From an uncultured Candidatus Saccharibacteria bacterium (lineage in GTDB: Bacteria > Patescibacteriota > Minisyncoccia > Phycocordibacterales > PALSA-1337), in assembly GCA_964561875.1 (NCBI GenBank), contig CAZLQL010000002.1:23613-87612 (forward strand): 64,000 nt of DNA. Reading direction: 5' to 3'. Below are positions 22,336-45,789 of the stretch, one piece after another. The translations under genes were made by a program, and so were the position numbers. The notes under the pieces were generated by a model. It worked only from the letters and a program-made list of their open reading frames with translations. It made no database searches and was not told the origin of the DNA. Each line of letters opens with the position of its first letter. Position 1 is the stretch's first letter.

Positions 22336-22350
22336 CTATTATAAAGTTAA

Positions 22351-22701: not shown

Positions 22702-22725
22702 TGTATTTCTTTTATTAAATTAAAT

Positions 22726-22914: not shown

Positions 22915-22937
22915 GATATTTTTATTAAATAGAAAAG

Positions 22938-24746: not shown

Positions 24747-25214
24747 ATGACAAAATCACAAAGTTTTTTTCTGCTTTTATTAAGACTTACTACAGGGTTT
24801 ATGATGTTTTACGCAGGTATTACAAAAGTCATCGATCCTACATGGTCATCTGTAGGGTATTTGAAAGGTGCAAAAATGCTCACTGGCTTCTATGCTTTTT
24901 TGCAAGGGTCGAGTATTTTACCTATAGTTGATTTTGTAAATGAGTGGGGACTTACACTTTTGGGAATATCACTAATACTCGGAGTCGGAGTAAGACTCTC
25001 AGCTCCTCTTGGTGCTTTGCTAATGATTCTTTATTACATACCACTCGGTTTCCCTTATCCAAACCCACATGCATTCATAGTTGATGAACATATAATATAT
25101 GCAACCATATTACTATTTTTTGCTTCAATAGATGCAGGACAGTATTTTGGTCTATCAAATAAAATGAGAGAAACATTTCTAGCCAAAATTCCTTTTTTTG
25201 GAAAATATGTATAG
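24747..25214 (+). CDS. DoxX family membrane protein
   Basis: LLLLRLTTGFMMFYAGITK DoxX-like helices. Confidence 0.75.
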   Translation: MTKSQSFFLLLLRLTTGFMMFYAGITKVIDPTWSSVGYLKGAKMLTGFYAFLQGSSILPIVDFVNEWGLTLLGISLILGVGVRLSAPLGALLMILYYIPLGFPYPNPHAFIVDEHIIYATILLFFASIDAGQYFGLSNKMRETFLAKIPFFGKYV

Positions 25215-25266
25215 AAAACAATAACTATATAAGTTTATATTTTGATTGTGTGTTAAAATTTAATAA

Positions 25267-28200
25267 ATGAATAAAAGTAACGATCGAGTTCTGATCCCAG
25301 TATTATTTTTAATTATTGTTTTTGTATTTATTACTATTTTTAAGATAGGTGGTATAAATATTTCTGGGATAAATCATAAGGCGATGGTTCATGAAGGTAT
25401 GAGTATTACGTTTAAAGACTCTTATCAACCTTCGTTTTTATCAAATCTAATTTCAAGAGTTGGATTGTCTAGTGCATATACAGCACTAAGTGGTGCTAGT
25501 AATGGAAAAATATCATATATAGAAGTTGTGCAACATGATGATATGGCCCAACTTAAAAGTTCCGAATACAATAAAATAAGAAAAGATTATGTGCCTGATT
25601 ATGCAAATATCGCTACTGTTGCTGCAAAATCTAGTGGTAATTGGAGCGATGTATTTTCTGGTTATACTTTCGATCAATCAACTATAGTACTTATACCTGA
25701 AGGAATAAGTATAAATTATGATATTGATAACAATGTTTTAATAAAAGGAATAGCAATAAAAGGTAAACTGAGTTTTGATCAAAATAAAAATACAAATCTA
25801 AAAATCGGGACAATCGTACTATATCCATCAGGAACTTATGAAGACAAACCAAGTAGTAGCGTAAGTCATAAGATTACATTTTCAGGTGAAATCGATAAGA
25901 ATATTGATCCTTTTCAAATGACTATTGGTTTGGTATCGATAGGTGGTAGGGTTGATATATATGGCAAAGATATAAAAGAATATTCAAAGATAGTTTCAGC
26001 AAATAGTAATTCTATTACAGTAGAAAATGCTTCAGGTTGGAAATCTGGTGATTCGATAATAGTTTATGAATCAGCAAAATTAAATAAGGCGAGTCTAAAA
26101 CAACAAATATTAAATATATCCTCTGTTCAAGGAAATCAGATAACATTAAATAATTCAATAGTTGGAGGTGTTGGGAAGTTTGCAATCTTGGCAACAAGGA
26201 ATGTTACATTTCAAAGTGATAGTAAGGGTGATAGAGGTCATATGATGTTTCTTGGTGATACATTAGTATCAATAAAAAATATTGCAGTGATAGATCTAGG
26301 TAGAACAACTACTAGCGCCACAGTGAGTGTAAAGAAAGTAGGTGATACATATATTCCTGGAGATAATCAGATAGGAAGATATCCGATACATGCACATCAT
26401 CTTCAAAAGAAGTTTGTTATTGAGGGAAGTATTGTTTATGGTTCACGTGACGAAAATATATTTTACTATAAAAATCTCTCAAGAAGGTTTGTAAATAACA
26501 CACCTCTGTCAGTATATATATCCACAGGAAAAGATCCTTTGGGAGATCAGATGGAGTCGGTGGTGTGGCCAACATCACATGATATAGTCGCTTCATCAAA
26601 CGGACGTTGGTGGTTTCTATACAATCCTGTTGGTGAAATGCCTGCACCCACTGCAGAGGCGACAGGATTTGCTCCATACAAAACACGCATAGGTAGCAAT
26701 AACGATGTTGAAATACTTGATTCAAATAATAATTGGGTAAAAACTGGTTGGATAAAGTATAAAGCAGTCATAAAAAATGGAAAGATATATGGCGATGGGA
26801 CTGTGGATTCTAGAATATCAGTAATAGACACACCTATTGCTTCACCAAAATGGGGTATAGTAAGTCATAATAGTTACGGTGATATAAAAAACAATGTAGT
26901 TGTAGGAGCAGAAGGCTCGGGTATAACAACAGAAGAGGGACTAGAGTCAGGCATAATAGATTCAAATCTAGTTGTGGGGTTGGGAGGTGGTACGGGTGAA
27001 CATGATGATAAAAGATGGTGGGGATTCGGTTTGAAAAAGCTTGATCTAGGATACGGTGGTGTAGCATTTTGGCATGCATCTATGGTCCCAGAGATTACAA
27101 ACAATATCGCAGATGGATTGTTTAGATTTGGTGTATATGTTGTTTATCATCCTTATGATGTTAATGGAGCTGTACCATCGATTAATAATTCAAATCAATA
27201 TAGCTTCCCAAATATTCCAGGAATGCCTTATCAATTAACAAATTATAAAGGCTTTACAAATGGAATAATGAAGTTTGAAAACAATACCTCATATGCAGAA
27301 TCTGGTCATGATGCTTCATCACTCATGCTTATAAATATAGGATCGTCAGATATTGAAACTACAAATCCATATAATGTCGTATCAAATTTTACTGCATATC
27401 ATAAAGGTATGACGGTAATTAGTATGGCCCCAATTACATTTACTGGATTGAGGTTATATGGAGATGGGGTGGGTACAGGAATAAATGCTGGTGATACTGA
27501 ATATTCTTTGATAAACAGTGAGGTTAAGTATTTTTCAAAAGGGATAAATTATGACAGGCATTCTCTAAGTATTATTGATTCGGTAGTTGATCATGTTCAG
27601 ACAAATTCACAAGCACAAGGTAAAATATATTATGATTCATTGTCTAAGAAAAGAGATAGAATATCAAAAAATAAGGATACTTATACAAAAGAAGCAATCA
27701 AGGAAAATAAAGATGCGAACTTTATCGCTGTGCTTGATCATGACAATGTATTTAATGCCATAAATAAAGATGAATCATTAAAAGGTTGGGCTACTATAGA
27801 TATAGATAAAGAAAAGCAGACTGTTACTATGAAGTGGAATCTTCATGATGGAAATAGTCCGATAATAAATATAGATGTAGTTGTTCCATCGAATGATATA
27901 GGTATACCTGCTATTATTCCTAATAAATTAAAAAGGGTATTTATGGTTTCTCAAGATAATACAAAATATAGTGGATCTTATGTTGTTACAAAAGCTGATA
28001 TAGAATCTGGAAGGTATTTCCCAGGAAAATATAATGGAGCAAAACCTCTGACATTTGAAGAATTTATAAGTTATTTAAACAAAGGAATGGTTGAGATTAG
28101 ATTTATAACCAATCATATAAACTTTGTTGATTCTGGTGCTTGGATAGAGGCACAAGGAAGTTTTGTTAAATATAAAGGTGTATCAAATTCTGATGATGTT

Positions 28201-28875
28201 AAACCTATTGAAAATAAACCAATTGAAACAACAGTTGATAAGAACAATCAGGTAAATATACCAGTTGGTCAAGTGCCAAAGGCTGTAGAATCTATGCCAG
28301 CGCCTGACACTGGATTACAAAACCTAAATCCAGTACAAACAACTATACCTATTATAAATACCAATACAAACACTAATACCAATACTAATTCTAATCCTAA
28401 TCCTAATACACAAAACACACCTGCAAACACAGACAATTCAAGTTCTAAATATGTAAAAGCATTAAATGGTTTTATTCCAAAAGGTGGAGATTCTAGTGCG
28501 GATGCTTCAAGGGTATCTGTGGATGAAGACAAGGCTTCCGCAAATTCATATTCTTCTGGATCATATAACGGCAATTCAAATGACTGGGTTTGGGATCTTA
28601 ATATCAATACTCCATCAGACAGAAAAATATATAATATAAGAATAACAGATGGAGAAAGTACATGGTCTACAAATGAGGATATTTATTGGCCACTGGTTGC
28701 ATTTAAAGATGGGAAACAAATGCATACAACAAGATCTGATCCTTTTATGATAACTGTGCCAGGGTTAAATAAAATCAGACTCTATGGACAGCAAAAAACT
28801 GCGTCATATAAAACAGTAAAAATATTTATAAACTTTGATCAGACAGACTATATAGAGGTAAGTAATGTGAGGTAG
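25267..28875 (+). CDS. giant secreted/surface protein (1202 aa), probable beta-helix with a low-complexity TNTNTNSNPNPN linker
   Basis: N-terminal TM/signal segment. A GRYPIHAHH segment may be beta-helix/G8-like, with low confidence. A hexanucleotide-repeat-encoded linker lies at 28355-28410. The stop codon falls inside a 22-bp direct repeat. Confidence 0.6.
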   Translation: MNKSNDRVLIPVLFLIIVFVFITIFKIGGINISGINHKAMVHEGMSITFKDSYQPSFLSNLISRVGLSSAYTALSGASNGKISYIEVVQHDDMAQLKSSEYNKIRKDYVPDYANIATVAAKSSGNWSDVFSGYTFDQSTIVLIPEGISINYDIDNNVLIKGIAIKGKLSFDQNKNTNLKIGTIVLYPSGTYEDKPSSSVSHKITFSGEIDKNIDPFQMTIGLVSIGGRVDIYGKDIKEYSKIVSANSNSITVENASGWKSGDSIIVYESAKLNKASLKQQILNISSVQGNQITLNNSIVGGVGKFAILATRNVTFQSDSKGDRGHMMFLGDTLVSIKNIAVIDLGRTTTSATVSVKKVGDTYIPGDNQIGRYPIHAHHLQKKFVIEGSIVYGSRDENIFYYKNLSRRFVNNTPLSVYISTGKDPLGDQMESVVWPTSHDIVASSNGRWWFLYNPVGEMPAPTAEATGFAPYKTRIGSNNDVEILDSNNNWVKTGWIKYKAVIKNGKIYGDGTVDSRISVIDTPIASPKWGIVSHNSYGDIKNNVVVGAEGSGITTEEGLESGIIDSNLVVGLGGGTGEHDDKRWWGFGLKKLDLGYGGVAFWHASMVPEITNNIADGLFRFGVYVVYHPYDVNGAVPSINNSNQYSFPNIPGMPYQLTNYKGFTNGIMKFENNTSYAESGHDASSLMLINIGSSDIETTNPYNVVSNFTAYHKGMTVISMAPITFTGLRLYGDGVGTGINAGDTEYSLINSEVKYFSKGINYDRHSLSIIDSVVDHVQTNSQAQGKIYYDSLSKKRDRISKNKDTYTKEAIKENKDANFIAVLDHDNVFNAINKDESLKGWATIDIDKEKQTVTMKWNLHDGNSPIINIDVVVPSNDIGIPAIIPNKLKRVFMVSQDNTKYSGSYVVTKADIESGRYFPGKYNGAKPLTFEEFISYLNKGMVEIRFITNHINFVDSGAWIEAQGSFVKYKGVSNSDDVKPIENKPIETTVDKNNQVNIPVGQVPKAVESMPAPDTGLQNLNPVQTTIPIINTNTNTNTNTNSNPNPNTQNTPANTDNSSSKYVKALNGFIPKGGDSSADASRVSVDEDKASANSYSSGSYNGNSNDWVWDLNINTPSDRKIYNIRITDGESTWSTNEDIYWPLVAFKDGKQMHTTRSDPFMITVPGLNKIRLYGQQKTASYKTVKIFINFDQTDYIEVSNVR
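28846..28867. repeat. 22-bp direct repeat, left copy (atagaggtaagtaatgtgaggt)
   Basis: Exact 22/22 match to 31222-31243. It overlaps the stop codon of the giant ORF. Confidence 0.85.
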
Positions 28876-28920
28876 AAGGTGTGGTTAAATAAGAAATAAA
28901 GTGTATTGAATTTTGAGTAT

Positions 28921-28958
28921 AAAAAATAACCCCACAGAACGTTTGTGTTCCGTGGGGC
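28921..28958 (-). terminator. rho-independent terminator for the minus-strand GC-rich operon
   Basis: Hairpin ccccacagaac/gttccgtgggg with a T tract on the minus strand. Confidence 0.6.
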
Positions 28959-28980
28959 CGAGCTAGCAAATTAATTTTTA

Positions 28981-29445
28981 CTATCCTAATATGTGACGTT
29001 CGATATCGAGCCAGCTTTCGACTCGAGTGGTGCTTGAGAGCTCCGCTTGCCATTTTTCAGCATCTTCCTGATTCGCTTGGAAAAGTAATCGATGGGTAAT
29101 AAAAGGCATATGACTCATGACTTCCGGTCGGTCGTCAATGAAATGAGTGATTCCAAGACGATGACAGATCGGAGCTTTGTCACGACGCTCTGCGCAGAAA
29201 TGGAGGTGGTCTGTGGCGATTCCGACAGACTGGAGAAATCGAGTCGAGCGTAGCCAAGCCTCAGCTCTGACTTGTTGTTCAGGAGTTACTCGTGAGATGA
29301 TATGCACCCTCTCACCGAATTTCTCTGATACAAGCCTTCGAATGACTCGATCTGCATCTGGGAGTAGAACTTGCATACCGTTTACACGGTGCACAATGGT
29401 TCTTCCCAGATCGATACCAAGAGCATTTTCAGTTTTTATTTCCAT
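28981..29445 (-). CDS. HAD-superfamily-like small protein (degenerate motif I), GC-rich
   Basis: GIDLGRTIV ... HFIDDRPE resembles HAD motifs I and IV, but the second Asp is replaced. Overlaps the upstream gene by 17 bp. Confidence 0.4.
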   Translation of the reverse strand: MEIKTENALGIDLGRTIVHRVNGMQVLLPDADRVIRRLVSEKFGERVHIISRVTPEQQVRAEAWLRSTRFLQSVGIATDHLHFCAERRDKAPICHRLGITHFIDDRPEVMSHMPFITHRLLFQANQEDAEKWQAELSSTTRVESWLDIERHILG

Positions 29446-30313
29446 ACTTTTTTATCCAAGTTCTGATTTCTGGCAGGTGATGCAGGTGGGTGACAAGTGT
29501 GCAGTAAGGATCGTGAGTTATTTTTCGAATGAGTACAGGGTCAAATTCCTCGATCGTTTCTCCTACGTGCAGGAAGCACAATCCAAGTTGTTTCGATAGA
29601 CCGAGCGGGGCTATCAGGTCCCAAGGTGTCTCGAAGTGTGGTCTAACAATCACTGCTCCAACTTCACCCTTCCAGACCTTGGCAAATACCGCTCCGATAC
29701 TTCCAGCAGCTACCTCAGCGTTCTTGAAGAGACCGCTATCAGTTAGGTCTACCATTCTCTGGACAATCTCTGGGTATGCAGTAGGTAGATCCTTGAGAAC
29801 AACATATTGTTTCTTGAGTGGTCGCTTTATATCCGGCTTGAGTAAAAGTCTCTTACCGAAACGAAGTCGAGTCCCCACATCTCTAGTTCCTTTAGCGAAA
29901 CCATAGATTTCTTCGGTATTGATATCTCCAATGTAAGTTGCAATCACTTTGCCATCACAGACGAGGCCCAACATAGTGGTAACTCCTTGCGAGGTATTGA
30001 GTGCGTAGGATTTGGTTCCATCGACCGGGTCGACAGTAAACCAGATATCGTGTTTGCTGTCAGTGCAAGGAATATCCAATTCCTTTTCCTCAGCAATGAT
30101 ACCGAAAGTAGGGAAGCGTTTTCGAAGTTCCCGGATATACATCTGTTGAGCTTTGAGATCACCACTGGTGACCACATCCTCTTTGATGCCATCGTAGGCC
30201 CTCTTGTCGTGGATAACTGTTTTGTGCGATTCGGTACGGATGATAGCGATCGCTTTTCTGACGATGGCGATCATATCATTCCGAATTCGTCTCATATTTG
30301 GTATATTTTTCAT
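29429..30313 (-). CDS. inositol monophosphatase / CysQ family phosphatase, GC-rich
   Basis: WFTVDPVDGTKSY (DPxDGT) plus EE and WD motifs; 294 aa. Confidence 0.75.
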   Translation of the reverse strand: MKNIPNMRRIRNDMIAIVRKAIAIIRTESHKTVIHDKRAYDGIKEDVVTSGDLKAQQMYIRELRKRFPTFGIIAEEKELDIPCTDSKHDIWFTVDPVDGTKSYALNTSQGVTTMLGLVCDGKVIATYIGDINTEEIYGFAKGTRDVGTRLRFGKRLLLKPDIKRPLKKQYVVLKDLPTAYPEIVQRMVDLTDSGLFKNAEVAAGSIGAVFAKVWKGEVGAVIVRPHFETPWDLIAPLGLSKQLGLCFLHVGETIEEFDPVLIRKITHDPYCTLVTHLHHLPEIRTWIKKYGNKN

Positions 30314-30470
30314 TCAATGTCCTTTCTGTTTCTACTATATGTTACTATCTTTAAAATTGCTGTGTTTGTATAAAATCTTGTATAGGTTTACACTTATTTG
30401 TATAAGTTTATTGAAAAATATAGGTAAATATGGTAGATTAGTTGTATAAAATAATTACAACTTATTATAT

Positions 30471-31190
30471 ATGTCAAAACACATATTAGAAAAAATTGGT
30501 TTTCTGGGTCATGAAAAAGAAATCTATCTTGCTCTTTTAGGTGTTGGTTCGTCTTCAGTTTCTGAATTAGTTCGTAAAACAGGTATTCATCGTCCTACGG
30601 TTTACAAAACACTAGCACTTCTTATTGATAAGGGTCTTGTACGCATCATGCCAGTTGGGAAATATAAAAAATATGTTGCTGAGTCGCCAGAACATTTAGA
30701 AACAATTTTTAAAGAACTTGAAGCCGATTTTACTTCAGAGATATTTGATCTAAAGGATATGTATGAAAGTAGAGATAAAAAGCCACGAATTACTTTTGTA
30801 GAAGGGTCAAAGGGTATTACTCAAGTCTTTTCTGATGTGGTTCATCGTCTCAAAAAAGGTGAAATGTACTTACGATATTCTTCACAAAAGGAATTGGATG
30901 TAAAAACATTTGTACCAAAGGACTATCGAGAGGTGAGAGATCGAAAAGGACTTGAACGCCTTATCATTACCAATGAACCGACCAAGAAACGTCATAGTAA
31001 AAAATTAGGTAGGGAAATCAAAGTTATTCCTCCTGATTTTGATTTGTTTGAATACAATATTTCACAGATTATTTATGCTGATAGAGTAGCTTTTATTGAT
31101 TACAATACAAAAACGTCAATCACCATAGAAAATCCTATTTTTGCTGAATTTCAAAGAAAGATTTTTAAGTTGTTATTCAAGAAGCTTTAA
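30471..31190 (+). CDS. TrmB-like HTH transcriptional regulator
   Basis: N-terminal EKEIYLALLGVGSSSVSELVRKTGIHRPTVYKTLALLIDKGLV is winged-helix TrmB-like. Confidence 0.6.
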   Translation: MSKHILEKIGFLGHEKEIYLALLGVGSSSVSELVRKTGIHRPTVYKTLALLIDKGLVRIMPVGKYKKYVAESPEHLETIFKELEADFTSEIFDLKDMYESRDKKPRITFVEGSKGITQVFSDVVHRLKKGEMYLRYSSQKELDVKTFVPKDYREVRDRKGLERLIITNEPTKKRHSKKLGREIKVIPPDFDLFEYNISQIIYADRVAFIDYNTKTSITIENPIFAEFQRKIFKLLFKKL

Positions 31191-31195
31191 AATGA

Positions 31196-31221
31196 GTCAA
31201 AACAAAACAAATCTTGCGAGT
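31196..31221. repeat. hairpin repeat family, copy 1 (gtcaaaacaaaac...tcttgcgagt...tgtttg)
   Basis: Shares an exact 14-nt block and an exact 10-nt block with 32648-32690. Forms a stem-loop with a TTGCGAG loop. Confidence 0.55.
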
Positions 31222-31243
31222 TGTTTGTTCATAGAGGTAAGTA
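31222..31243. repeat. 22-bp direct repeat, right copy
   Basis: Exact copy of 28846-28867. In the giant gene's frame it would read ...IEVSNVRWL*. Confidence 0.85.
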
Positions 31244-31326
31244 ATGTGAGGTGGTTATAAAGTAATAACATTACAAATTATTTATCGATAAATTGATAAT
31301 AATTTATTATGTGATAAACTTTTTTT

Positions 31327-32019
31327 ATGTTTGATAATCCTACTTCTATTAGATATTTAGACGATAATACTATAAACCAGAGTACTAATAATGACTCGAT
31401 AAGAGCAAAATCCGCAGTTTTTGCAAGAAAAAGAAAAGTTGTATCGTATTATTTCGGTACACCTTTGCAGTCTGCTACTCACATAGCAGATGCTAATTTG
31501 GATCAATTTATAACAATACAAGGTGATAAAATTAATTATTTACAACCACCACGTCCAATAGTAAAAGGAGGTCTGAATGTTTCTTTTGGCCTAGGAGGGA
31601 ATTCACCACGTCATGCATGGAAGATTCCTTCAGTAATTTACGTTACCAAGAAATACATACTTATAACCCCATCAGAAGAACAGCTAAATGCTTCAAAGTT
31701 TATATACGGTATTAGTATTGCTATGACTTTCTTATTCCTACTATTAACAATACCTTTCACGTTTATTTTCGGTCCTATTTTCCTCATATTTTCTCTTTTA
31801 TGTATATCGTTACCTATCATCAAATCCTACCTCTTCTTTTTTAAGAAAAGTTACATATCTGTAGCCCCTATTGAAGTAATAAAAAATATAAATGTAGATG
31901 AAAAGACGATTACTGTTGATGGATTTTTTAATACTGGAATTCCATCATTCTTAAAATACAAAGTATCTGCTGAATTATACGTAGGAGACAATATTTCTTT
32001 TTTTAGAGACAATATTTAA
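31327..32019 (+). CDS. hypothetical membrane protein
   Basis: Two TM helices; AT-rich and native-like. Confidence 0.4.
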   Translation: MFDNPTSIRYLDDNTINQSTNNDSIRAKSAVFARKRKVVSYYFGTPLQSATHIADANLDQFITIQGDKINYLQPPRPIVKGGLNVSFGLGGNSPRHAWKIPSVIYVTKKYILITPSEEQLNASKFIYGISIAMTFLFLLLTIPFTFIFGPIFLIFSLLCISLPIIKSYLFFFKKSYISVAPIEVIKNINVDEKTITVDGFFNTGIPSFLKYKVSAELYVGDNISFFRDNI

Positions 32020-32202
32020 ATTAATAGCTTCCGGTACAGTAGCTATTGACATATAGATTTTACTATGATATATCCATAAAGTAAGGTAAGTTCTTTGAAA
32101 GGTGTGTAGTTGAGTACGGAATAAGGGAAATAATTGACTTGCTGGCAATCGCTATGCGGATTAAATTCCTTTACTGTACTCAATACAAGAGAGAAACACA
32201 TC

Positions 32203-32436
32203 ATGAAAAAATTCGAAAAAAAATTGAAGGACGCCCTTAAGAAAATTGAGGGCAAGTCAGTCAGTCTTAGTGGCTCGAGCAACTGCATTCGCATTGTGCT
32301 CAAAGGTGGCAAAGAATACTGGGGAACGGTGAAAGAAGTCTGCAGTGACTCGTTCACGGTCTCGGTCTCGTATACGGGTGGCGGTCGTGAAAACATCGTC
32401 GTGCGTATGAGGGAAGTTGCTTCTTTCAGCGAGTGA
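32203..32436 (+). CDS. small GC-rich hypothetical protein (77 aa)
   Basis: MKKFEKKLKD... reads as a coherent ORF. GC is much higher than the flanks. It is followed by a hairpin terminator. The antisense ORF 32043-32462 is judged spurious. Confidence 0.4.
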   Translation: MKKFEKKLKDALKKIEGKSVSLSGSSNCIRIVLKGGKEYWGTVKEVCSDSFTVSVSYTGGGRENIVVRMREVASFSE

Positions 32437-32460
32437 ACCCTAAAATCCAAAATCCTTAAC

Positions 32461-32495
32461 ACACCGCATGGTTAGCCCAGCGGTGTTTACTTTTG
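32461..32495 (+). terminator. hairpin terminator, second copy of the hairpin family seen at 13866-13892
   Basis: acaccgcatggttagcccagcggtgt followed by ttacttttgc. Confidence 0.5.
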
Positions 32496-32647
32496 CTTAA
32501 ATATTCAAGTCTTTTGATATAATTTACTTTTATAGAATAGTTTTAAATAATGGCGAGAAAAACGTTGTAGTGGAAGACACTCTGGTGAATATCAAGGGTG
32601 CTTATACAGACATTTTACGACTTTCAACTCCCCAAATAGCTTCATCA

Positions 32648-32690
32648 GTCAAAACAAAACCACTCTTGCGAGTGGTCTGTTTTGTCTGTG
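32648..32690. repeat. hairpin repeat family, copy 2
   Basis: gtcaaaacaaaaccactcttgcgagtggtctgttttg forms a ~15-bp stem; related to 31196-31221. Confidence 0.55.
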
Positions 32691-32941
32691 GACACATACC
32701 GAAATACATCGAACCGCCTAAAAGACTATCTTTCTCGGTTCTGGCACTACTATCAAACTAGCCCTGATTTGCAAAAAGTCCTTGCAACAGCATGATAATC
32801 CAGTCCTGAAGTGGTCACAATAAGGGTATTGAATTCTTGTATTGCATTTCTGTACTGGCGCGTAATTTTTTTAAAAACAGATTATCCTGTAATTACATAC
32901 AAAAACGGTGAGTGATATTTTTATTGTTCACTTTATATTAG

Positions 32942-32970
32942 TTGACATAAAACTTTGCTGGATTTAGACT
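32942..32970 (+). promoter_or_regulatory. sigma70-like promoter TTGACA-N17-TAGACT upstream of the GHKL ATPase gene
   Basis: ttgacataaaactttgctggatttagact. A 10-bp palindrome tcgatatcga (33007-33016) and a hairpin (33054-33075) lie in the 5' leader. Confidence 0.4.
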
Positions 32971-33086
32971 ATTAGAGTCCTTGGTGAAGTATTGGTATCG
33001 CTAGTCGATATCGATCACAGACACTAATACAAATCTCTAATTGTATTTTATCTGCAAAACACCTCGCCAAGGGTGTTTATTAGTTT

Positions 33087-34631
33087 TTGGTATCTAGTTG
33101 GATATCGAAAATAGCAAAAATTATTATGTTTATAAAAAATCACCCTAACGCAGCAAAACTCCTCTCCTCGTTGCGTAATACGGGATATGACAGCTATGCT
33201 GCTGTTGAGGACATTATTGATAATTCTATCGACGCTGATGCTCGAAGAATTAAGATCGGTATTAGTATTGTCGGAAAAGAGCCCCGCGTTACAATTGCTG
33301 ACGATGGATCAGGAATGACGAAAGAAATTCTTGATGAGGCTTTGAAGTTGGGATCAGAAACAGAAAAAGATGAGATGTCTGATCTTGGTAAATATGGCAT
33401 GGGTCTTTGTACTGCCTCAATCTCGATGGCGAAAAGACTTAAGGTTATTACTCGAAAAGTAGATGGTGGATATTGGTCAAGTGTCCAAGATCTCGATGAA
33501 GTCGTGAAAGCAAACGATTTTATTAAGGAGTTGCAAGAATCAGACAATGATGACATTGCTCTCTTTAAAGAATTGGTAGAGAGCGATCATGGAACCCTTG
33601 TTATCTTGAGCAAAATTGATCGCCTGTCAAACACAAATGTTTCTATTTTTGCGACTACTCTTTCAAAAGAAATCGGTCGTATATACAGAAAATTCATTGC
33701 AGCCGGTATTGAGTTCAGAGTAAATGATAAGAAGGTTGAAGGCATTGATCCCCTAATGCTTGATGTTGAAGGTACACAGGTTTATTCTGACGAAGAATAT
33801 GAGGTGCCATCACACAAAGGAAAAGAAAAGGTTAATGTGCGAGTTGTGTTTCTGCCAAGTGTAAATGAACAGCTTGAAAAGGAGTATAAAATGAATATCT
33901 CATCTCAAGGGTTCTATATACTAAGAAATAATCGTGAGATCGCTAATGGAGTTACACTTGATGTTTTTAAGAAGCACAACGATCTTAATAGATTACGTAT
34001 CGAGCTTTCTTTCACTTCAAATCTCGATAATGAGATGGGTGTTCGTTTCACAAAAGATGGCGTATCTCCTAATCAGGCCATAAGCGATTTCCTTAAACAA
34101 GAAATCGGTGGCCAGATTGAATCAATTAGAAAAACCGTTGTAAAAAGTCGTGTGACCGACAAATCAAAAGAAATAAACCACGAGGAGTCTGCTGCAGTTA
34201 TTGCGAAGAAATCTAAATTACTCATTACTCCAGACGCAATAATTGAACGTCGATCACCAAAAATAAATAAAAATAACAAGAAAGAAAAAACGGAAAAAGA
34301 CGAAACTCGTGATCGAGTACCAAAGGAGACAAGGATTTCTTCAAGTGGCTTAGGGGCAAGGTTCGAAACCCTTTCTATGGGAAGAGAAGGTGCTCTATAT
34401 GATTGTTATCAGGAAGGTAAGGTTGTTGTGATTCAATGGAATGTAGATCACCCATTTTACGAGAAAATCGTACTCGCGAATAAAGATCGAAAAGATTTGA
34501 CGGCGGGCATAGATTTCTTGATATATGCACTTGCTTCAGCGGAGTTGAAAACAACAAATGATGATAATGTAAAAATTATTAGCCAGATAAAAACAATAAT
34601 GTCCGGAAATCTAAAATCATTACTATCTTAA
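33087..34631 (+). CDS. GHKL-superfamily (HATPase_c_3-like) ATPase, 514 aa
   Basis: N-box EDIIDNSIDA, G1 DDGSGM and G2 GKYGMGL motifs. The C-terminal 300 aa are of unknown function. Confidence 0.75.
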   Translation: MVSSWISKIAKIIMFIKNHPNAAKLLSSLRNTGYDSYAAVEDIIDNSIDADARRIKIGISIVGKEPRVTIADDGSGMTKEILDEALKLGSETEKDEMSDLGKYGMGLCTASISMAKRLKVITRKVDGGYWSSVQDLDEVVKANDFIKELQESDNDDIALFKELVESDHGTLVILSKIDRLSNTNVSIFATTLSKEIGRIYRKFIAAGIEFRVNDKKVEGIDPLMLDVEGTQVYSDEEYEVPSHKGKEKVNVRVVFLPSVNEQLEKEYKMNISSQGFYILRNNREIANGVTLDVFKKHNDLNRLRIELSFTSNLDNEMGVRFTKDGVSPNQAISDFLKQEIGGQIESIRKTVVKSRVTDKSKEINHEESAAVIAKKSKLLITPDAIIERRSPKINKNNKKEKTEKDETRDRVPKETRISSSGLGARFETLSMGREGALYDCYQEGKVVVIQWNVDHPFYEKIVLANKDRKDLTAGIDFLIYALASAELKTTNDDNVKIISQIKTIMSGNLKSLLS

Positions 34632-34689
34632 TAGTCGGTGTGAATTAGAGATTAAAAGACCGCTAGTTATCTAGTGGTTTTTTTAATAC

Positions 34690-35211
34690 ATGATTGAGTT
34701 TGTTGAAACGTCTCATGTTGTGTATAATATACATAACATGGCTACACAATCTAAAAATTTGTATAAGGCCGAAGACGTAGCAAAATATTTTATCTATCTA
34801 GGATCACAACAGGTTGTCGGCGACAACAAAGAAAGAGAGGGAGTAACAAATCTTAAACTCCAGAAGATACTTTATCTTGCTCAAGCGTATTTTCTTGCAA
34901 AAATTGGCAAGCCTCTTTTTGTTGATCCTATCGAAGCATGGGAGTTCGGTCCAGTTGTCCCAAATGTTTACCACAAGTTGAAGAGATATGGTAGTAACCC
35001 TATTATCGTCGAAAAAGATGAAAGCTCTGTGTTACCAGAAGATAAAGAAATTTTAGGTAAAGTTTGGGAAGCTTTTGGTGGCTATTCAGCTAGTCGTCTG
35101 GTTGATATTACTCACGCGCATACGCCTTGGAAAGAGGCTTATAATTCTTCGAATAAAGAAATTAGTAACAAAGCTATCGGTGAATATTATACGCCTTTGC
35201 TAAATAAATAA
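34690..35211 (+). CDS. Panacea (DUF4065, SocA-like) antitoxin-domain protein
   Basis: KLQKILYLAQAYFLAKIGKPLF...AWEFGPVVPNVY is the hallmark of this domain. Confidence 0.7.
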   Translation: MIEFVETSHVVYNIHNMATQSKNLYKAEDVAKYFIYLGSQQVVGDNKEREGVTNLKLQKILYLAQAYFLAKIGKPLFVDPIEAWEFGPVVPNVYHKLKRYGSNPIIVEKDESSVLPEDKEILGKVWEAFGGYSASRLVDITHAHTPWKEAYNSSNKEISNKAIGEYYTPLLNK

Positions 35212-35235
35212 TCCCTTGTATCGGTAAATACGGCC

Positions 35236-35637
35236 ATGGAAGAGATGATTACGCCTAGCAAGATAGATCTTAGATACGCTGAACACAAAGTCTTGTTTTT
35301 AATCTGCGACTGTTCTCTGGATAAACATTATTCATTTTGGAAACTCACGAGAGAACAAGCTGAAAAGTTTATTAAAAAACTTAGATACGTTGAGCAATTA
35401 ACGTGGTCTCAATTTTCAAATTTACCAAGAGATAGTACTGGTCCAACAGTAGAAAAGCAGAATACCGATAGTTTTAATATGATACATAATCAAAATACAT
35501 CAGCGGAAAAAATTGCTGAACAGTATTATTTTCATTTTCGAATTGAACCGAGAGGACTTTTTAGGGTTTTTGGATATCAGAAGAAACAATACTTTTGCAT
35601 AACCCATATTGATTACGAAGGAAGAATTCATCATTAA
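35236..35637 (+). CDS. small protein, candidate RelE/ParE-like toxin
   Basis: The C-terminus FRVFGYQKKQYFCITHIDYEGRIHH resembles the RelE/ParE C-terminal beta strands. It sits directly downstream of the Panacea-domain gene. Confidence 0.3.
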   Translation: MEEMITPSKIDLRYAEHKVLFLICDCSLDKHYSFWKLTREQAEKFIKKLRYVEQLTWSQFSNLPRDSTGPTVEKQNTDSFNMIHNQNTSAEKIAEQYYFHFRIEPRGLFRVFGYQKKQYFCITHIDYEGRIHH

Positions 35638-35711
35638 AAAATACACTGCGAATTCATATTTACAGAGAGATTAGAATATGTAGATAAAGAAGGTTGTCGA
35701 AGTAATAAAAA

Positions 35712-35738
35712 ACACCAGCAAAAGCTGGTATTTTTTTA
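35712..35738 (+). terminator. rho-independent terminator (accagcaaaagctggt plus T7)
   Basis: Perfect 6-bp stem, 4-nt loop and a T tract after the three-gene module. Confidence 0.7.
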
Positions 35739-35871
35739 TTACTGTGGAGATAGTCACGCAAAGTTGGAACCAACTCTATTCTTGGTTTTTTGAATCGTCT
35801 GGGCGATTATAGAAAGTAGGGAACATTGCGTATAAAAGAGAACTCCACAATAAGCAGAGCCTCTTGCGGAG

Positions 35872-36336
35872 TTATTGACCAAGATTTTTGATTCGTTCCA
35901 AGGTTTCGCGTCGTTCAATAGCTTGTCTCGTGATTTTCTGAACTACGTAAACGCATTTCCTCAGGTCAGCTTCACCCTCAGGGGTCGAACAAAGCCTCCG
36001 ATGAAGAACGTCTTTGGGAATTAGAAACGTTATATATTCCGCTAGGTCAGAAAGTGTTGCGTCTGATAAATTACGCAGCTCTTCCACCGTAAACCCTACA
36101 TCGCAGAATTCTTGCGAATCTTTTGCGACTTGAACCAGAAGCTCTTGATAGAGCTCCATTAGGTTTTCCTTCTGCCATGTTTCTAACTGATCCCAATCAT
36201 CAATATTGTCTCGATAGAGAGCAGTGACATCAGGAAGGAGGGTTGGAATGGACGCGATCTTTTTGAGCCCTATAAGCCAAGCCCTAACTTCTTCTTTGGT
36301 TTGCATGTTTAAAACCTTTGGTTGGATTTTTACCAA
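35872..36336 (-). CDS. GC-rich hypothetical protein adjacent to the ssrA 3' end
   Basis: 154-aa ORF with much higher GC than the genome background. Confidence 0.4.
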   Translation of the reverse strand: MVKIQPKVLNMQTKEEVRAWLIGLKKIASIPTLLPDVTALYRDNIDDWDQLETWQKENLMELYQELLVQVAKDSQEFCDVGFTVEELRNLSDATLSDLAEYITFLIPKDVLHRRLCSTPEGEADLRKCVYVVQKITRQAIERRETLERIKNLGQ

Positions 36337-36389
36337 AAAAAGCTGCTATTAAATATGATATCATATCTAGTAATAAATGTCAAATCTGT

Positions 36390-36787
36390 GGAGATGCTGG
36401 GAGTTGAACCCAGGTGCAGATGAAATCTTATACTGATTCTACATTGTATAGAATGCTTTTGCGTCTATCTATCGACAGACTATTTAACCTTTATACTTTA
36501 AAGCAAACAAAATATATAAAAGCGATTCCCAAGAGATTTGAACTATAAACAGGGAAGAGAATATAGTTCTAGTTTAATTTATATCAATCCACCACTTCTC
36601 TAAACAAAGGAGTGACGACCGTCGCTCGAGCCTAAGCTAAAGCGAAAGCAAGATTTGTACTTCCAAAAGGAGATACAACTGCCTTTGCAACTGATTTTGC
36701 AGTTACGATTTCCGTCAGATTAAAGAGTTAACGGTGCTCTACAATGCACAATATGAAGTACCTCAACTGTCGAGGCCTTTCATCCCC
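36390..36787 (-). ncRNA. ssrA: tmRNA (transfer-messenger RNA)
   Basis: On the minus strand the 5' end reads GGGGATGAAAGGCCTCGAC and the 3' end reads CTGGGTTCAACTCCCAGCATCTCCA. The acceptor stem GGGGATG/CATCTCC pairs. The internal tag ORF ends ...GSTNLAFALA*. It lies next to smpB on the same strand. Confidence 0.7.
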
Positions 36788-36830
36788 ATATTAAAATTTT
36801 CAAACAACTAAAATGAAAAATAAAGTCTAA

Positions 36831-37277
36831 TTATAAAGAAAGTTCTCTTCGCATATCGCGATCTGAGTCTCTCTTTTTAATATCTTCTCTTTTATCAAAT
36901 TTCTTTTTTCCTTTGACAATAGCGATTTCTACCTTTATTTTTCCTGATTTATTATATATCAAAATAGGCACTATTGTCAATCCCTTCTTTTGTTCTACTC
37001 CTGCGAGTTGTGAAATCTGAGCCTTATTTAACAAGAGTTTTCTATGTCTTTTTGGATCATATTCGCCTGAGGTATTCTTTTCTTGAAAAGGAGGGATTTC
37101 ACTATTCATAAGAAAGGCTTCACCACCTCTAATAGTCACATATGAACCTAGTATTGAACCTTGTCTCTTTCGCAAGCTCTTTACTTCTGTACCTAGGAGT
37201 TCTATTCCAGCTTCAAAACCCTCGACTATGTCGTAGTTCATTTTTGCCTTTTTGTTTTCTATAAGCGTTTCATTCAT
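36831..37277 (-). CDS. smpB: SsrA-binding protein
   Basis: GTEVKSLR...GGEAFL...KRHRKLLLNK...KGKKKFDKRED. Confidence 0.9.
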   Translation of the reverse strand: MNETLIENKKAKMNYDIVEGFEAGIELLGTEVKSLRKRQGSILGSYVTIRGGEAFLMNSEIPPFQEKNTSGEYDPKRHRKLLLNKAQISQLAGVEQKKGLTIVPILIYNKSGKIKVEIAIVKGKKKFDKREDIKKRDSDRDMRRELSL

Positions 37278-37321: not shown

Positions 37322-39259
37322 ATGAAAGAAACATCACATATAAAACCACCACAAAATAACAATAATAAAGGTAATAATAAAAAAGGTAAAACACCTAGAA
37401 GATTCGGAATATTAAACTCGTTAATGTTCGGTCTTATAATTTTGTTTTTATTGAGTGGATTGTATTCTGCAATAGTAGAGGGTGTATCTAGTACTCCAGT
37501 TATACCTATATCAGAATTGGTAAACAATATAGGTATGGGTAAGGTTAGTTCTATAACAGTAAGTGGTGATGATCTTACTGTTAACTATTCAGACAACACC
37601 ATAAAGAAATCAAAAAAAGAAACTGATTCTTCTATAACAGAAACACTTACTAGATATGGACTTACTCCAGAAAAATTGAATGCTGTAAAAATCACAGTAG
37701 AAGGACCAAGTGGATTTTGGTTTTGGGTAGGACAATTGGCACCATTTATTGGGCCAATATTCCTTCTATTGCTTATAGTTTGGTTTATGACCAGACAGGT
37801 AAAGGGTGCGGGATTACAAGCTTTTTCTTTCGGTCAATCAAAAGCACGTATTACTTTGCCAGATGATAAAAAACAAAAAGTTACTTTTAAAGACGTGGCG
37901 GGTGCAAAAGAGGCTAAACAAGAATTGTCAGAAATTGTAGATTTTTTGCGTAATCCAAAGAAGTTTCTAGAAATTGGTGCAGTAATTCCAAAAGGGATAT
38001 TGCTCATGGGAGCTCCCGGAACTGGAAAAACATTGCTTGCTCGTGCCGTAGCAGGGGAAGCTGGTGTAGCATTTTTCTCAATATCAGGTTCAGAATTTGT
38101 AGAGATGTTTGTGGGAGTAGGTGCTTCGAGAGTTAGGGATTTATTTAAAATGGCAAAAGAAGCTTCACCATCTATAATCTTTGTCGATGAAATAGATGCT
38201 GTGGGAAGAGTAAGAGGTACTGGTGTTGGAGGAGGAAATGATGAAAGAGAACAAACATTAAACCAAATCCTTGTTGAGATGGATGGTTTCGAACCAAATG
38301 AAAAGGTTATTGTTATGGCTGCCACAAATAGACCAGATGTTCTAGACCCCGCTCTACTTCGTCCAGGAAGATTTGACCGTAGAGTAACTATAGATCTACC
38401 AGATAGAAATGATAGAGAAGAAATATTGAAGATTCATTCCATAAAAAAGCCTTTGGCAGAAGATGTTGCACTGAGAGTTATTGCAGAGAGAACACCGGGT
38501 TTTTCTGGAGCTGATCTATACTCACTTATGAATGAAGGGGCAATACTTGCAGCTCGTGAAAATCGTACAAAAGTCTCACAGTATGATCTTATAAGAGCAA
38601 TAGAAAAAGTGATGCTCGGTCCTGAAAGAAAGAGTCACCTTCTTTCAAAAAAAGAAAAAGAAATAACTGCATACCATGAAGCTGGTCACGCATTAGTTGC
38701 TTCTGTTCTTCCATATGCAGATCCAGTACATAAAATATCTATAATCTCTCGTGGAAGAGCGGCTGGTTATACTCTCCATTTACCTATTGAAGATAGAAAG
38801 ATGCAATCAAAAAATGAGTTTTTAGATGATATCGCTGTTTCATTGGGTGGATATGCTGTAGAGAAAATGATGTTCGGTGATGTTACTACAGGTCCATCAA
38901 ATGATCTTCAAGTTTCAACTGCACTCGCACGAGACATGGTTACAAAATATGGTATGTCAGATAAAATAGGTGCTCTTGCTCTAGAAGGATCAGGCGGAAG
39001 GGCAATGTTTGGAAAGGGTATAGAAGATAAAGAATATTCAGAAAAAGTAAGTGCAGATATAGATGCTGAAGTATCAAAAATCATGTCAGAAGGTATGGCT
39101 AAAGCAAATGAGACTATAGTAAAATATAAAAATGCACTTGATGCTATAGCAAAAAGATTGATTGATGTGGAAACTATAGAAAGAGAGGAATATGAATCAA
39201 TAATTATTTCACATGGTATAACACCAAAACGAAAACTGGATATTGAACATCAATCATGA
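37322..39259 (+). CDS. ftsH: ATP-dependent zinc metalloprotease FtsH
   Basis: AAA Walker A GAPGTGKT and the HEAGH zinc motif. Confidence 0.95.
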   Translation: MKETSHIKPPQNNNNKGNNKKGKTPRRFGILNSLMFGLIILFLLSGLYSAIVEGVSSTPVIPISELVNNIGMGKVSSITVSGDDLTVNYSDNTIKKSKKETDSSITETLTRYGLTPEKLNAVKITVEGPSGFWFWVGQLAPFIGPIFLLLLIVWFMTRQVKGAGLQAFSFGQSKARITLPDDKKQKVTFKDVAGAKEAKQELSEIVDFLRNPKKFLEIGAVIPKGILLMGAPGTGKTLLARAVAGEAGVAFFSISGSEFVEMFVGVGASRVRDLFKMAKEASPSIIFVDEIDAVGRVRGTGVGGGNDEREQTLNQILVEMDGFEPNEKVIVMAATNRPDVLDPALLRPGRFDRRVTIDLPDRNDREEILKIHSIKKPLAEDVALRVIAERTPGFSGADLYSLMNEGAILAARENRTKVSQYDLIRAIEKVMLGPERKSHLLSKKEKEITAYHEAGHALVASVLPYADPVHKISIISRGRAAGYTLHLPIEDRKMQSKNEFLDDIAVSLGGYAVEKMMFGDVTTGPSNDLQVSTALARDMVTKYGMSDKIGALALEGSGGRAMFGKGIEDKEYSEKVSADIDAEVSKIMSEGMAKANETIVKYKNALDAIAKRLIDVETIEREEYESIIISHGITPKRKLDIEHQS

Positions 39260-39294: not shown

Positions 39295-39368
39295 GCGCGT
39301 GTAGCTCAGTTGGTTAGAGCATCGAGCTTATACCTCGAGGGTCCCTGGTTCGAGTCCAGGCACGCGCA
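39295..39368 (+). tRNA. tRNA-Ile with anticodon UAU
   Basis: Cloverleaf with acceptor GCGCGTG/CACGCGC, anticodon stem TCGAG/CTCGA, loop CTTATAC and T-loop TTCGAGT. Confidence 0.85.
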
Positions 39369-39395
39369 CCGAGCGTAGTATATAAAAAAGAAAAA

Positions 39396-43641: not shown

Positions 43642-43731
43642 GGAACCGTGGTGGAGTGGTTTAACATACCTCTTTGCTAAAGAGGCGAGCCCTTTAAAGG
43701 CTCCGAGGGTTCGAATCCCTCCGGTTCCGCA
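43642..43731 (+). tRNA. tRNA-Ser (anticodon GCU), class II with a long variable arm
   Basis: Acceptor GGAACCG/CGGTTCC, anticodon loop TTGCTAA, variable arm GAGCC-TTTAAA-GGCTC and T-arm GAGGG-TTCGAAT-CCCTC. Confidence 0.85.
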
Positions 43732-43962
43732 ATGATCCACAAGGAAGCCTAAATGGCTTCCGAGTGGATTATCATTTCGTAAATCGAAGTGATGAGAAAG
43801 CCGGACTGAGCGAAGGCGAAGGAGGCGGGTGAGCTTGGGTGAGGGACCCAAGCGCAAGACCTTTTGAGATTGTAATCAATCCAAAAGGTATACTGGCCCT
43901 GTAAGGGTCGCGGGCGAGGCTAGCAAGCCGAGACCTGTGACCGAATCCCTCCGGTTCCGCCA
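43732..43962 (+). repeat. structured GC-rich repeat element, copy A (231 nt), starting immediately at the tRNA-Ser 3' end and ending with a 24-nt tRNA-Ser-3'-end-like sequence
   Basis: The first ~80 nt match 45790-45870 at 79 of 81 positions. It shares the 3' block gtcgcgggcgaggctagcaagccgagacctgtgaccgaatccct. It has a ~75-nt extra segment with a perfect hairpin (cttgggt-gagg-gacccaag). It ends in gaccgaatccctccggttccgcca. Confidence 0.7.
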
Positions 43963-44001
43963 TTAGCAGGTAGCACGACATGCTATCTGAAATAGGTAAA
44001 C

Positions 44002-44026
44002 AAAAAGCACCGATCGGTGCTTTTTG
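44002..44026. terminator. bidirectional terminator hairpin (aaaaagcaccgatcggtgcttttt)
   Basis: Perfect palindrome GCACCGATCGGTGC flanked by A5 and T5. Confidence 0.7.
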
Positions 44027-44035
44027 TTTAGTTAA

Positions 44036-44641: not shown

Positions 44642-44644
44642 AAA

Positions 44645-45343: not shown

Positions 45344-45359
45344 TTTATCATTTTTGACC

Positions 45360-45701: not shown

Positions 45702-45789
45702 GAGATGCGTCGATTAAGATTCTGAAAAAGTGCTAAAATGACCTTACAGGGCTTGTCGGCATTTAGTTCTAACACGACGCTCTCCGCAA

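Follow-up and report, generated by a model that had tools for sequence, protein, structure and literature searches.

What is the DNA that lies at the 3' end of ssrA, the transfer-messenger RNA (tmRNA) gene, in an uncultured Candidatus Saccharibacteria bacterium, and how did it come to be there? We analyzed a 64,000-nt stretch of this genome (contig CAZLQL010000002.1), referred to here as the window; coordinates are those of the window unless a relative is named, and relatives are designated by sequence codes (e.g., L003, L034, L087 and L177). The genome is of a Patescibacteria (Paceibacteria/Nomurabacteria-like) type. A preliminary description had recognized a single, old or decayed GC-rich island of 4.3 kb (32100-36390) that abuts ssrA and carries no integrase. 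Based on comparison with relatives, we propose instead that the ssrA 3' DNA is a tandem array of at least three to four small integrase-less islets, running from 36.39 kb down to ~28.85 kb and built by site-specific integration into the ssrA 3' end. We give this reading a probability of roughly 0.65. The feature is a genuine but ordinary ssrA-linked accessory region, with corrected borders and a corrected GC rationale.

Read outward from ssrA, the array would consist of E1 (a promoter, a 144-amino-acid (aa) open reading frame (ORF), and a terminator), relic 1, E2, relic 2, E3, a 22-mer, E4, and a second 22-mer. E2 would comprise a PanA antitoxin with a RelE-fold toxin, then a MORC-like GHKL ATPase gene that has a separate promoter and leader; E3 would hold a hairpin, a 77-aa ORF, and a 230-aa membrane ORF; and E4 would hold a TrmB-type regulator, a phosphatase-like gene, and a 154-aa ORF. 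Elements carrying an attP that resembles the ssrA 3' end would integrate site-specifically and successively into the final ~19-22 nt of ssrA, and each integration would restore the ssrA 3' end and displace the previous copy outward as a relic. The 22-mers after E3 and E4 are candidate relics 3 and 4.

36386..36787, minus strand: ssrA (tmRNA gene), Rfam RF00023 at 106.7 bits; placed at 36388..36787 by ARAGORN.

The preliminary description put the 3' end of ssrA at 36390 on the minus strand, which agrees with ARAGORN and Rfam to within 2-4 nt. Directly upstream of ssrA is smpB (36831..37277, minus strand), followed by the divergent ftsH (37322..39259). On the far side, the conserved neighbor infC is reached only at 23.5 kb, where the RNase J-like, rplT, and infC genes span 20965-23498; no record of the exact InfC protein was found. 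The putative attachment core is the final ~19 nt of ssrA (36386-36404, CTCCCAGCATCTCCACAG).

The site was surveyed in 80 species representatives, collected with SmpB as the query. Approximately 54 of the 80 keep the order RNase J-like, rplT, infC ... ssrA, smpB, ftsH, recG, with the RNase J-like/rplT/infC homologues no more than 10 kb from smpB. The distance from the end of smpB to the next core gene varies from 486 bp, which accommodates just ssrA, to 6.3 kb, and exceeds 10 kb in seven species; at 13.3 kb, the window is the largest bounded case. In every arrangement the variable DNA follows the 3' end of ssrA; where the smpB-ssrA pair is inverted, this places it between ssrA and ftsH. None of the 12 window ORFs between infC and ssrA (23.5-36.4 kb) occurs in the corresponding gaps of the 80 representatives, except for one homologue of cls (cardiolipin synthase). 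L003, the closest representative (SmpB 93%), was set aside as a comparison; its contig stops at the tmRNA 3' end. Both orientations of smpB-ssrA relative to infC/ftsH are found among L003-L082 (e.g., L013, L024 and L027 versus L007, L017 and L025).

Serine recombinases account for 5 of the 141 gap ORFs in these representatives. Four species (L034, L038, L049, and L061) encode a serine recombinase of 487-517 aa (Resolvase, Recombinase, and Zn_ribbon_recom domains) that is convergent with ssrA, and in each of them the recombinase ORF, on the opposite strand, reaches exactly 22 nt into the 3' end of the tmRNA gene:

L034, 10833-10854: 22-nt recombinase/ssrA overlap.
L038, 10400-10421: 22-nt recombinase/ssrA overlap.
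L049, 8142-8163: 22-nt recombinase/ssrA overlap.
L061, 10904-10925: 22-nt recombinase/ssrA overlap.

Because the recombinase ORF runs 22 nt into ssrA, the att crossover region falls inside the end of the recombinase gene. L061 also encodes a second, 248-aa resolvase, and the 10 kb 3' of ssrA that begin with this recombinase pair contain a LOOT RNA (16031-16141, minus strand; Rfam RF03000, 71.9 bits). Direct 19-nt repeats of the ssrA 3' end occur ~170-185 bp downstream in L051 and L066, and a 22-nt ssrA repeat occurs around ~180 nt in L091. Variable flank sizes, recombinases that overlap ssrA, and true repeats in relatives thus bear out the suggestion that this site attracts integration: the ssrA 3' flank is a real hotspot of integration and variability in the clade.

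The window itself carries no integrase, as the preliminary description had noted. No ORF in the interval 23.5-36.4 kb has an integrase match in Pfam, and tblastn with 173 gap ORFs of relatives, including four serine recombinases, recovers no integrase remnant in the island. The responsible enzyme would most likely be a large serine recombinase, the type still at the site in related species, with the recombination genes later lost. Such loss would leave the islets fixed, or mobilizable only in trans in the manner of cis-mobilizable elements (CIMEs).

Two close relatives show which part of the DNA comes and goes. L087, a 6.9-kb Logan contig, aligns with the window at 79-95% identity in four blocks: infC/cls, DoxX, 28918-31207, and 35814-36789. 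By segment, identity is 79% for cls and DoxX, 91% for E4, and 95% for E1 and ssrA. L087 lacks ~31.2-35.8 kb, in place of which it has ~46 bp, and it also lacks 25205-28917. L177, an independent ENA contig that is 93-97% identical to the window, has the same TrmB-to-144-aa-ORF join. In these two relatives, which come from independent samples, very little separates TrmB from relic 1 and the 144-aa ORF, and neither has E2 or E3. The missing segment (~31.2-35.74 kb) holds the 230-aa membrane ORF, the 77-aa ORF, and the GHKL, PanA, and toxin genes, which are a presence/absence polymorphism. The stretch at 25205-28917 encodes a 1202-aa G8-domain surface-type protein, for which L087 has ~1 kb of other DNA; in L095/L096, a 2349-aa G8 protein adjoins a serine recombinase.

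These comparisons redraw the island. Relatives that lack it do exist, in that ~31.2-35.74 kb is empty in L087 and L177; the 144-aa ORF, on the other hand, is present in L087, L177, L088, and L090. The missing stretch starts 0.9 kb to the left of the border first proposed and ends 0.65 kb short of ssrA, and the accessory DNA extends to at least 28.85 kb. Rather than a single 4.3-kb GC-rich unit, the region is a mosaic of separate islets. What survives of an "old or decayed island" is accessory DNA with its own promoters and terminators and no integrase; it is not one unit, and its ssrA-proximal part, E1, is conserved in place.

36355..36383, minus strand: sigma-70-like promoter, TTGACA-17-TATCAT with TG, 11/12 matches in a promoter scan; drives the 144-aa ORF.
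35872..36306, minus strand: E1 cargo, GC-rich 144-aa ORF of unknown function; likely ATG at 36306, or 154 aa from a TTG at 36336.
35841..35861, minus strand: terminator hairpin of the 144-aa ORF, -16.6 kcal/mol, z -4.0.

Accessory DNA begins with this promoter, 3 nt past the tmRNA end. A search of 5.8 billion proteins yields just 4 homologues of the 144-aa ORF, and it occupies the same place in four related lineages at 48-91% aa identity. Its homologue directly follows ssrA in L087, L177, and L088; in L090, a 124-aa ORF lies between the two; and the contig with the L089 copy, 1311 nt in length, does not include ssrA. Finding the same genes at the same place in relatives had been named as grounds for rejecting an island, and for the ORF that abuts ssrA this is what we observe. 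Since the ORF has kept its position across four lineages, that part of the region is not a recent island.

The borders between islets retain traces that resemble former ssrA ends:

35742..35812, minus strand: relic 1, degenerate pseudo-ssrA 3' end with its conserved upstream arm, at the distal border of E1; GGTTCCAACTTTGCGTGAC followed by TATCTCCACAG at 35771..35742.
32686..32715, minus strand: relic 2, pseudo-ssrA 3' end at the E2/E3 border; GGTTCGATGTATTTCGGTATGTGTCCACAG, found by pattern scan, with a 7-nt match at 32686-32692.
32618..32685, unstranded: element-end sequence with a hairpin at 32644-32681, homologous to the L177 mini-insert at ssrA.
31192..31252, unstranded: candidate relic 3 at the E3/E4 border; hairpin copy plus the 22-mer 31231-31252.

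The reference for these traces is the ssrA 3' end of L177, where a 131-bp insert is flanked by a 19-nt repeat, CT(A/G)TGGAGATGCTGGGAG, so that the core CTCCCAGCATCTCCACAG is present twice. Relic 1 shares an exact 10-mer with the ssrA end (ATCTCCACAG, 35742-35751). In relic 1 the motif GCGTGAC precedes the repeat (GCGTGAC plus TATCTCCACAG, 35742-35763), as it does in L177 and L091. The ~70 nt around relic 1 have two homologous copies in L090 (E 2.5e-5 and 3e-4), and a TTGACA promoter follows the real ssrA end as well as both L090 copies. For relic 2, window positions 32618-32692 match the end of the L177 insert (68 nt) together with the first 7 nt of the repeat (94.7% identity over 75 nt; E 2e-28, blastn); in L177 this sequence directly adjoins the real ssrA end. 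Because the match spans both insert end and repeat start, an old element/ssrA junction survives at 32686-32692. Read in the orientation of ssrA, GGTTCGAT...TCCACAG, a pseudo T-loop and acceptor end, precedes this junction. Besides the real ssrA end, the T-loop...TCCACAG pattern matches two minus-strand sites, 35771-35742 and 32715-32686, with 0.9 occurrences expected per 64 kb. Relics 1 and 2 probably represent former ssrA ends, convincing only through their homology to the true junctions in L177, L091, and L090.

The element-end hairpin has a second copy at 31192-31229 (internal repeat, 87%), which, with the adjoining 22-mer, makes up candidate relic 3. This 22-mer (31231-31252) is identical to 28852-28873 (22/22 nt, E 5e-5), and the similarity extends to ~45 nt with one indel. 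The two 22-mers bracket the conserved GC-rich block of TrmB, the phosphatase-like gene, and the 154-aa ORF; L087 lacks the segments in which the two copies are located, and both L087 and L177 diverge from the window at candidate relic 3. The motif GTGGAGAT has only two copies in the 6.9 kb of L087, one at ssrA and one 22 nt from the border of the E4 block. An excess of GTGGAGAT on the plus strand of the window was considered as a source of further relics and rejected; three of the five have the form GGTGGAGAT, an in-frame reading of which would give Gly-Gly-Asp, and the copies were not counted because none extends into the ssrA repeat.

The cargo of E2 to E4 is as follows:

33126..34631 (or from 33087), plus strand: GHKL ATPase, HATPase_c_3, 501/514 aa; Pfam 1.5e-27.
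34690..35211, plus strand: PanA-type antitoxin (SocA/Panacea); Pfam PF13274, 5.5e-25.
35236..35637, plus strand: predicted toxin of 133 aa with a RelE/ParE-superfamily fold; NCBIfam MAG6450 family.
35701..35744, unstranded: bidirectional intrinsic terminator closing the PanA-toxin operon; stem 35714-35729 plus T-run, -19.3 kcal/mol, z -6.3.
32203..32436, plus strand: E3 cargo, 77-aa ORF with no family match.
32461..32486, plus strand: terminator-like hairpin after the 77-aa ORF, -14.7 kcal/mol, z -2.4, then UUUACUUUUG.
31327..32019, plus strand: E3 cargo, 230-aa predicted membrane ORF with native-like GC (0.309), missing in L087 and L177.
28852..31190, unstranded: candidate E4, 22-mer/relic 4 (28852-28873) plus three genes, by GC and Pfam.
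28981..29445, minus strand: E4, GC-rich 154-aa ORF, a pair with the phosphatase-like gene at z 3.9/3.3.
29429..30313, minus strand: E4, GC-rich inositol-monophosphatase-like gene (Pfam).
30471..31190, plus strand: E4, TrmB-type regulator (Pfam).

All ORFs named at the outset (154-aa, GHKL ATPase, Panacea, 133-aa, and 77-aa) are present, and folding energies and z-scores show that both terminators proposed there are genuine hairpins followed by T-runs. A combined GHKL/Panacea/RelE module does not hold up. The GHKL gene and the PanA-toxin pair are each found elsewhere without the other and are therefore separate mobile units.

The GHKL ATPase has more than 1000 homologues, mostly found as lone genes, and its nearest solved relatives in the PDB are MORC2/3/4 and MutL. 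It is a MORC/MutL-type protein encoded by a single-gene mobile cargo. It is 88% identical in L091, compared with 62% for SmpB, 81% for FtsH, and 68% for RecG, and the L091 copy sits after tRNA-Ser. A 71% identical homologue stands alone between infC and ssrA in L093; another, in L099, follows tRNA-Glu between two resolvase-domain ORFs; and a third, in L095, resides within an element that has Prim-Pol and three serine recombinases. The gene seems to have been dropped repeatedly at tRNA and tmRNA 3' ends. A general enrichment of tRNA genes beside GHKL homologues is not claimed; a tRNA gene occurs within 1 kb of ~11% of GHKL loci, which is not clearly above expectation for such genomes.

The predicted toxin starts 25 nt downstream of PanA in the same orientation, and a single terminator closes the pair. 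Its predicted structure has the RelE-type alpha/beta fold. Among family models, Pfam gives no match (RelE, YoeB, ParE models), NCBIfam MAG6450 scores 41.2 bits against a cutoff of 40, and PADLOC returns a weak NsnC match. The pair recurs without the ATPase in the infC-ssrA region of L178, where the toxin is 74% identical. PHROGs matches are limited to PanA and, weakly, to the toxin and the 154-aa ORF. A literature search on MAG6450, HATPase_c_3 RNA motifs, MzaB, and Patescibacteria serine-recombinase elements returned nothing useful.

A second islet array occurs in the window at tRNA-Ser(GCU) (43642-43730; region 43642-45940), where a 22-nt repeat of the tRNA 3' end is found at 43712-43733 and 43942-43963. 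This array comprises a ~211-nt mini-element, the 22-nt repeat, a HAD hydrolase, an SDR gene, a 113-aa ORF with high GC at third codon positions (GC3), and a second mini-element copy. Repeats of 104 nt (43726-43829 = 45783-45886) and 51 nt (43905-43955 = 45885-45935), 94-96% identical, bracket the three genes. Forty nt of the tRNA-Ser mini-element are 97.5% identical to the L177 ssrA insert. In general, the mini-element spans 130-210 nt and combines a hairpin and a pseudo T-arm with a GC-rich GAGCGAGCG-type stretch. It lies in the window at 43783-43819 and 45853-45892, and also just 3' of tmRNA or tRNA genes in distant Patescibacteria: L177 (reverse complement) 1098-1228, L091 2093-2267, L021 14088-14126, L004 4638-4683, and L178 7462-7492. 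Between species it reaches 100% identity over 39 nt, at a SmpB identity of ~62% to the window's. As a further observation on tRNA genes, a tRNA-Ile (anticodon TAT; 39295-39370) follows ftsH in the window, a position that is conserved across the family and seen in most relatives.

Several results weigh against a stack of islets built at ssrA. A relaxed search for a duplicate of the ssrA 3' end, which the preliminary description had recommended, yields no significant copy when 23.5-36.4 kb is scanned by Smith-Waterman; the top-scoring local alignment reaches 21, where random sequence gives 20.3 +/- 2.3 (p 0.37), and BLAST of the final 91 nt of ssrA returns only chance-level 9-15-mers. The T-loop pattern was written after the relics had been seen, and the longest uninterrupted match is just 10 nt in relic 1 and 7 nt in relic 2. 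Relics 3 and 4 are weak candidates. The recombinase type is taken from species whose SmpB is only 52-65% identical, and the window has none. Simple accretion predicts that the newest element lies beside ssrA, but in the window that position belongs to the conserved E1, and the variable E2 and E3 are farther out. The islet order requires either the entry of E2 and E3 at relic 1 or their loss from L087 and L177 by recombination between relics. Nothing related that would point to a viral origin turned up in IMG/VR, for which the queries were the element-end hairpin, the GHKL protein, and the recombinase of a relative.

Base composition likewise does not track the borders of the islets. The GC content of 32100-36390 (0.375, or 37.5%) does exceed that of the window (0.343, or 34.3%) and of background genes (0.343 +/- 0.032), but within the region only two ORFs are outlying, so the "clearly elevated GC" of the preliminary description holds in part. 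The 77-aa ORF is the strongest outlier (GC 0.474, GC3 0.577, z 5.7), and the 144-aa ORF is also a strong one (GC 0.437, z 2.9). GHKL (z 1.0), PanA (z 0.6), the toxin (z -0.5), and the 230-aa ORF (GC 0.309) are not outliers. The most GC-rich patch of the neighborhood, at 28981-30313 (0.45-0.47; z 3.9 and 3.3), lies outside the original coordinates and holds the second 154-aa ORF and the inositol-monophosphatase-like gene. Because only individual genes deviate, GC marks single genes rather than an island. The two GC-rich ORFs given as 154 aa were considered as paralogues and show no similarity to each other, and look-alike sequences downstream of both are just two terminators. Elsewhere, a 127-aa ORF without a Pfam match (13917-14300, minus strand; GC3 0.49, z 4.4) lies antisense to a 115-aa ORF in surroundings of otherwise native composition.

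The alternative that fares best, a reasonable rival that we nevertheless consider unlikely, is a hotspot of homologous recombination, in which conserved flanks (ssrA/smpB versus infC/rplT or TrmB) swap cassettes between strains, this genome has undergone no site-specific integration, and the ssrA-like motifs arise by chance. The window, with no integrase and no significant repeat of its own, is compatible with this, and the mosaic identity to L087 (79%, 91%, and 95%) suggests recombinational exchange. Defense hotspots without mobility genes are, moreover, described for other bacteria (PMC10250203). Against cassette swapping stand the true 19-22-nt ssrA repeats and the ssrA-overlapping recombinases of relatives, the homology of 32618-32692 to an ssrA-repeat junction including the start of the repeat, and the clear att-type repeats at the tRNA-Ser locus of the same window.

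Considerably less probable is native, vertically inherited DNA with gene-specific constraints on GC, from which L087 and L177 would have lost a segment by deletion. Three GC-rich ORFs (144-aa, 154-aa, and phosphatase-like) are indeed in place in L087 at 85-93% aa identity, and the GHKL, PanA, and toxin genes are near-native in composition; against vertical descent stand the near-absence of the 12 ORFs from the infC-ssrA gap of the 80 representatives, a GHKL protein that is closer between genomes than core genes are and sits at other loci, and the rarity of the 144-aa ORF in protein databases. An assembly or binning artefact that fused organisms at the conserved tmRNA gene is very improbable: short-read contigs from three runs do break at the ssrA 5' end (36757-36787) and, of the 80 reference contigs, 12 or more stop no farther than ~800 bp past smpB, but independent Logan contigs from four runs are 100% identical across 30778-36786, with another across 32105-36787, so that all internal junctions are covered and a chimera is excluded, smpB-side contigs overlap these by a k-mer, and L087 carries ssrA, E1, and E4 contiguously. 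As separate observations, the breaks of L001, L002, L083, L084, and L086 fall in the first ~30 nt of the tmRNA gene, likely reflecting 5' sequence shared with co-occurring relatives, and L083 also starts at 32105, near the left border first proposed for the island. We therefore retain site-specific integration of successive islets at ssrA as the preferred explanation.

The GHKL gene carries a second feature of interest, a structured leader:

32942..33125, plus strand: promoter (32942-32970) and ~150-nt structured leader (32975-33125), with a terminator at 33057-33078 and a competing long-range stem.
L091, 9847-10003: leader in another genome.
L095, 7840-7998: leader in another genome.
L106, 6866-7024: leader in another genome; 17 further loci are known.

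The leader DNA is conserved in every homologue of at least 51% aa identity that has upstream sequence, and it is conserved more strongly (identity 0.67-0.96) than the coding DNA (0.63-0.79) or the sequence upstream of the promoter (~0.5). It folds at -42.3 kcal/mol (z -4.7) into a three-way junction closed by a 5'/3' stem, P1, and the terminator overlaps the 3' strand of this stem. Across 17 leader sequences, 97.1% of cells are paired, compared with 39-47% when the partners are slid, and nine pairs are changed on both sides, compared with 2.2 +/- 0.9 in shuffles. Searches with a covariance model recover 20 loci, scoring 38-162 bits, and each of them precedes a GHKL gene. The leader contains two 'UUGGU-stem-AUYGA' hairpins with an invariant G.U pair. 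More broadly, a YUUGGU-stem-AUYGA hairpin with covarying pairs lies 30-75 nt upstream in 49 of 67 loci, including homologues of 40-47% identity and leaders of higher GC; because hairpins were selected for having five pairs, information comes from pairs 4-6 alone. Neither the leader nor the mini-element matches any Rfam 15 family, even at E <= 10.

With covariation, a fixed position, and a terminator set against an alternative helix, the leader has the hallmarks of a cis-regulatory structured RNA. We suggest tentatively, and at somewhat less than even odds, that it may represent an undescribed class of cis-regulatory RNA that travels with a lone MORC-like ATPase across Patescibacteria and has a reduced form in GC-rich phyla. 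The leader would then act as a sensor, either for a ligand or for the ATPase, that turns on a gene that is mobile and probably defensive.

That islands occur at tmRNA genes is textbook knowledge; accessory gene gain and loss in the ultra-small genomes of Patescibacteria is far less documented. What gives the present finding its value is the view across the whole family, together with the RNA leader. The 3' ends of ssrA and tRNA genes serve as docking sites in this family, with a large serine recombinase still at the site in some species and only integrase-less mini-islets of toxin-antitoxin (TA) and ATPase genes in others. This provides an attB sequence and candidate recombinases for organisms without genetic tools. 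The hotspot could also help to separate core from accessory DNA in fragmented metagenome-assembled genomes, and the GHKL leader offers a new regulatory-RNA candidate linked to a mobile gene of unknown role.

Finally, the components and the layout of the region can be compared with known systems. The GHKL protein shares its N-terminal Bergerat-fold HATPase_c_3 domain with MORC/MutL-type GHKL proteins, including MzaB of the Mza anti-phage system, which is its best PADLOC/NCBIfam match; unlike MzaB, it reaches only 123 bits on NF041932 (cutoff 850), has no MzaA, C, D, or E nearby, and is preceded by a structured leader. The PanA-toxin pair resembles PanA-PanT (Kurata et al. 2022, PMC8832971), in which a Panacea protein likewise lies beside a small toxin in one operon on mobile or accessory DNA. 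The toxin differs in belonging to a MAG6450-like family typical of Patescibacteria, with a RelE fold and an N-terminal extension, and its toxicity and neutralization by PanA are predicted. As for the array, CIMEs and accreted integrative elements (reviewed in PMC5704250; listed in ICEberg 2.0, PMC6323972) are likewise islets that are flanked by att-type repeats, lack recombination and transfer genes, and lie in tandem at one site. The present array differs from CIMEs in that no conjugation or phage machinery was found nearby, mobilization in trans is putative, and the host is a Patescibacteria episymbiont-type genome.

The closest parallel in layout is provided by the tandem ssrA islands of Dehalococcoides (McMurdie et al. 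2011, PMC3146451), which are bounded by 20-bp ssrA repeats and encode, next to ssrA and in reverse orientation, a serine recombinase of ~540 aa; some of these islands lack the module and appear fixed. Unlike these, the window has no integration module, its repeats have decayed to 7-10 nt, its islets measure 0.6-3 kb versus ~10-30 kb, and its cargo consists of TA, ATPase, and orphan ORFs rather than dehalogenases. The exact 22-nt recombinase/ssrA overlap is a feature of the relatives and is not taken from the Dehalococcoides paper, and the comparison with DsiB/CcrB concerns layout. A reverse-strand serine recombinase of ~500 aa beside ssrA is common to Dehalococcoides (DsiB/DsiA) and to L034, L038, L049, and L061, the last of which also has the small second resolvase, and in the window, as in Dehalococcoides, the islands would lie in tandem downstream of a single-copy tmRNA gene in a streamlined genome.

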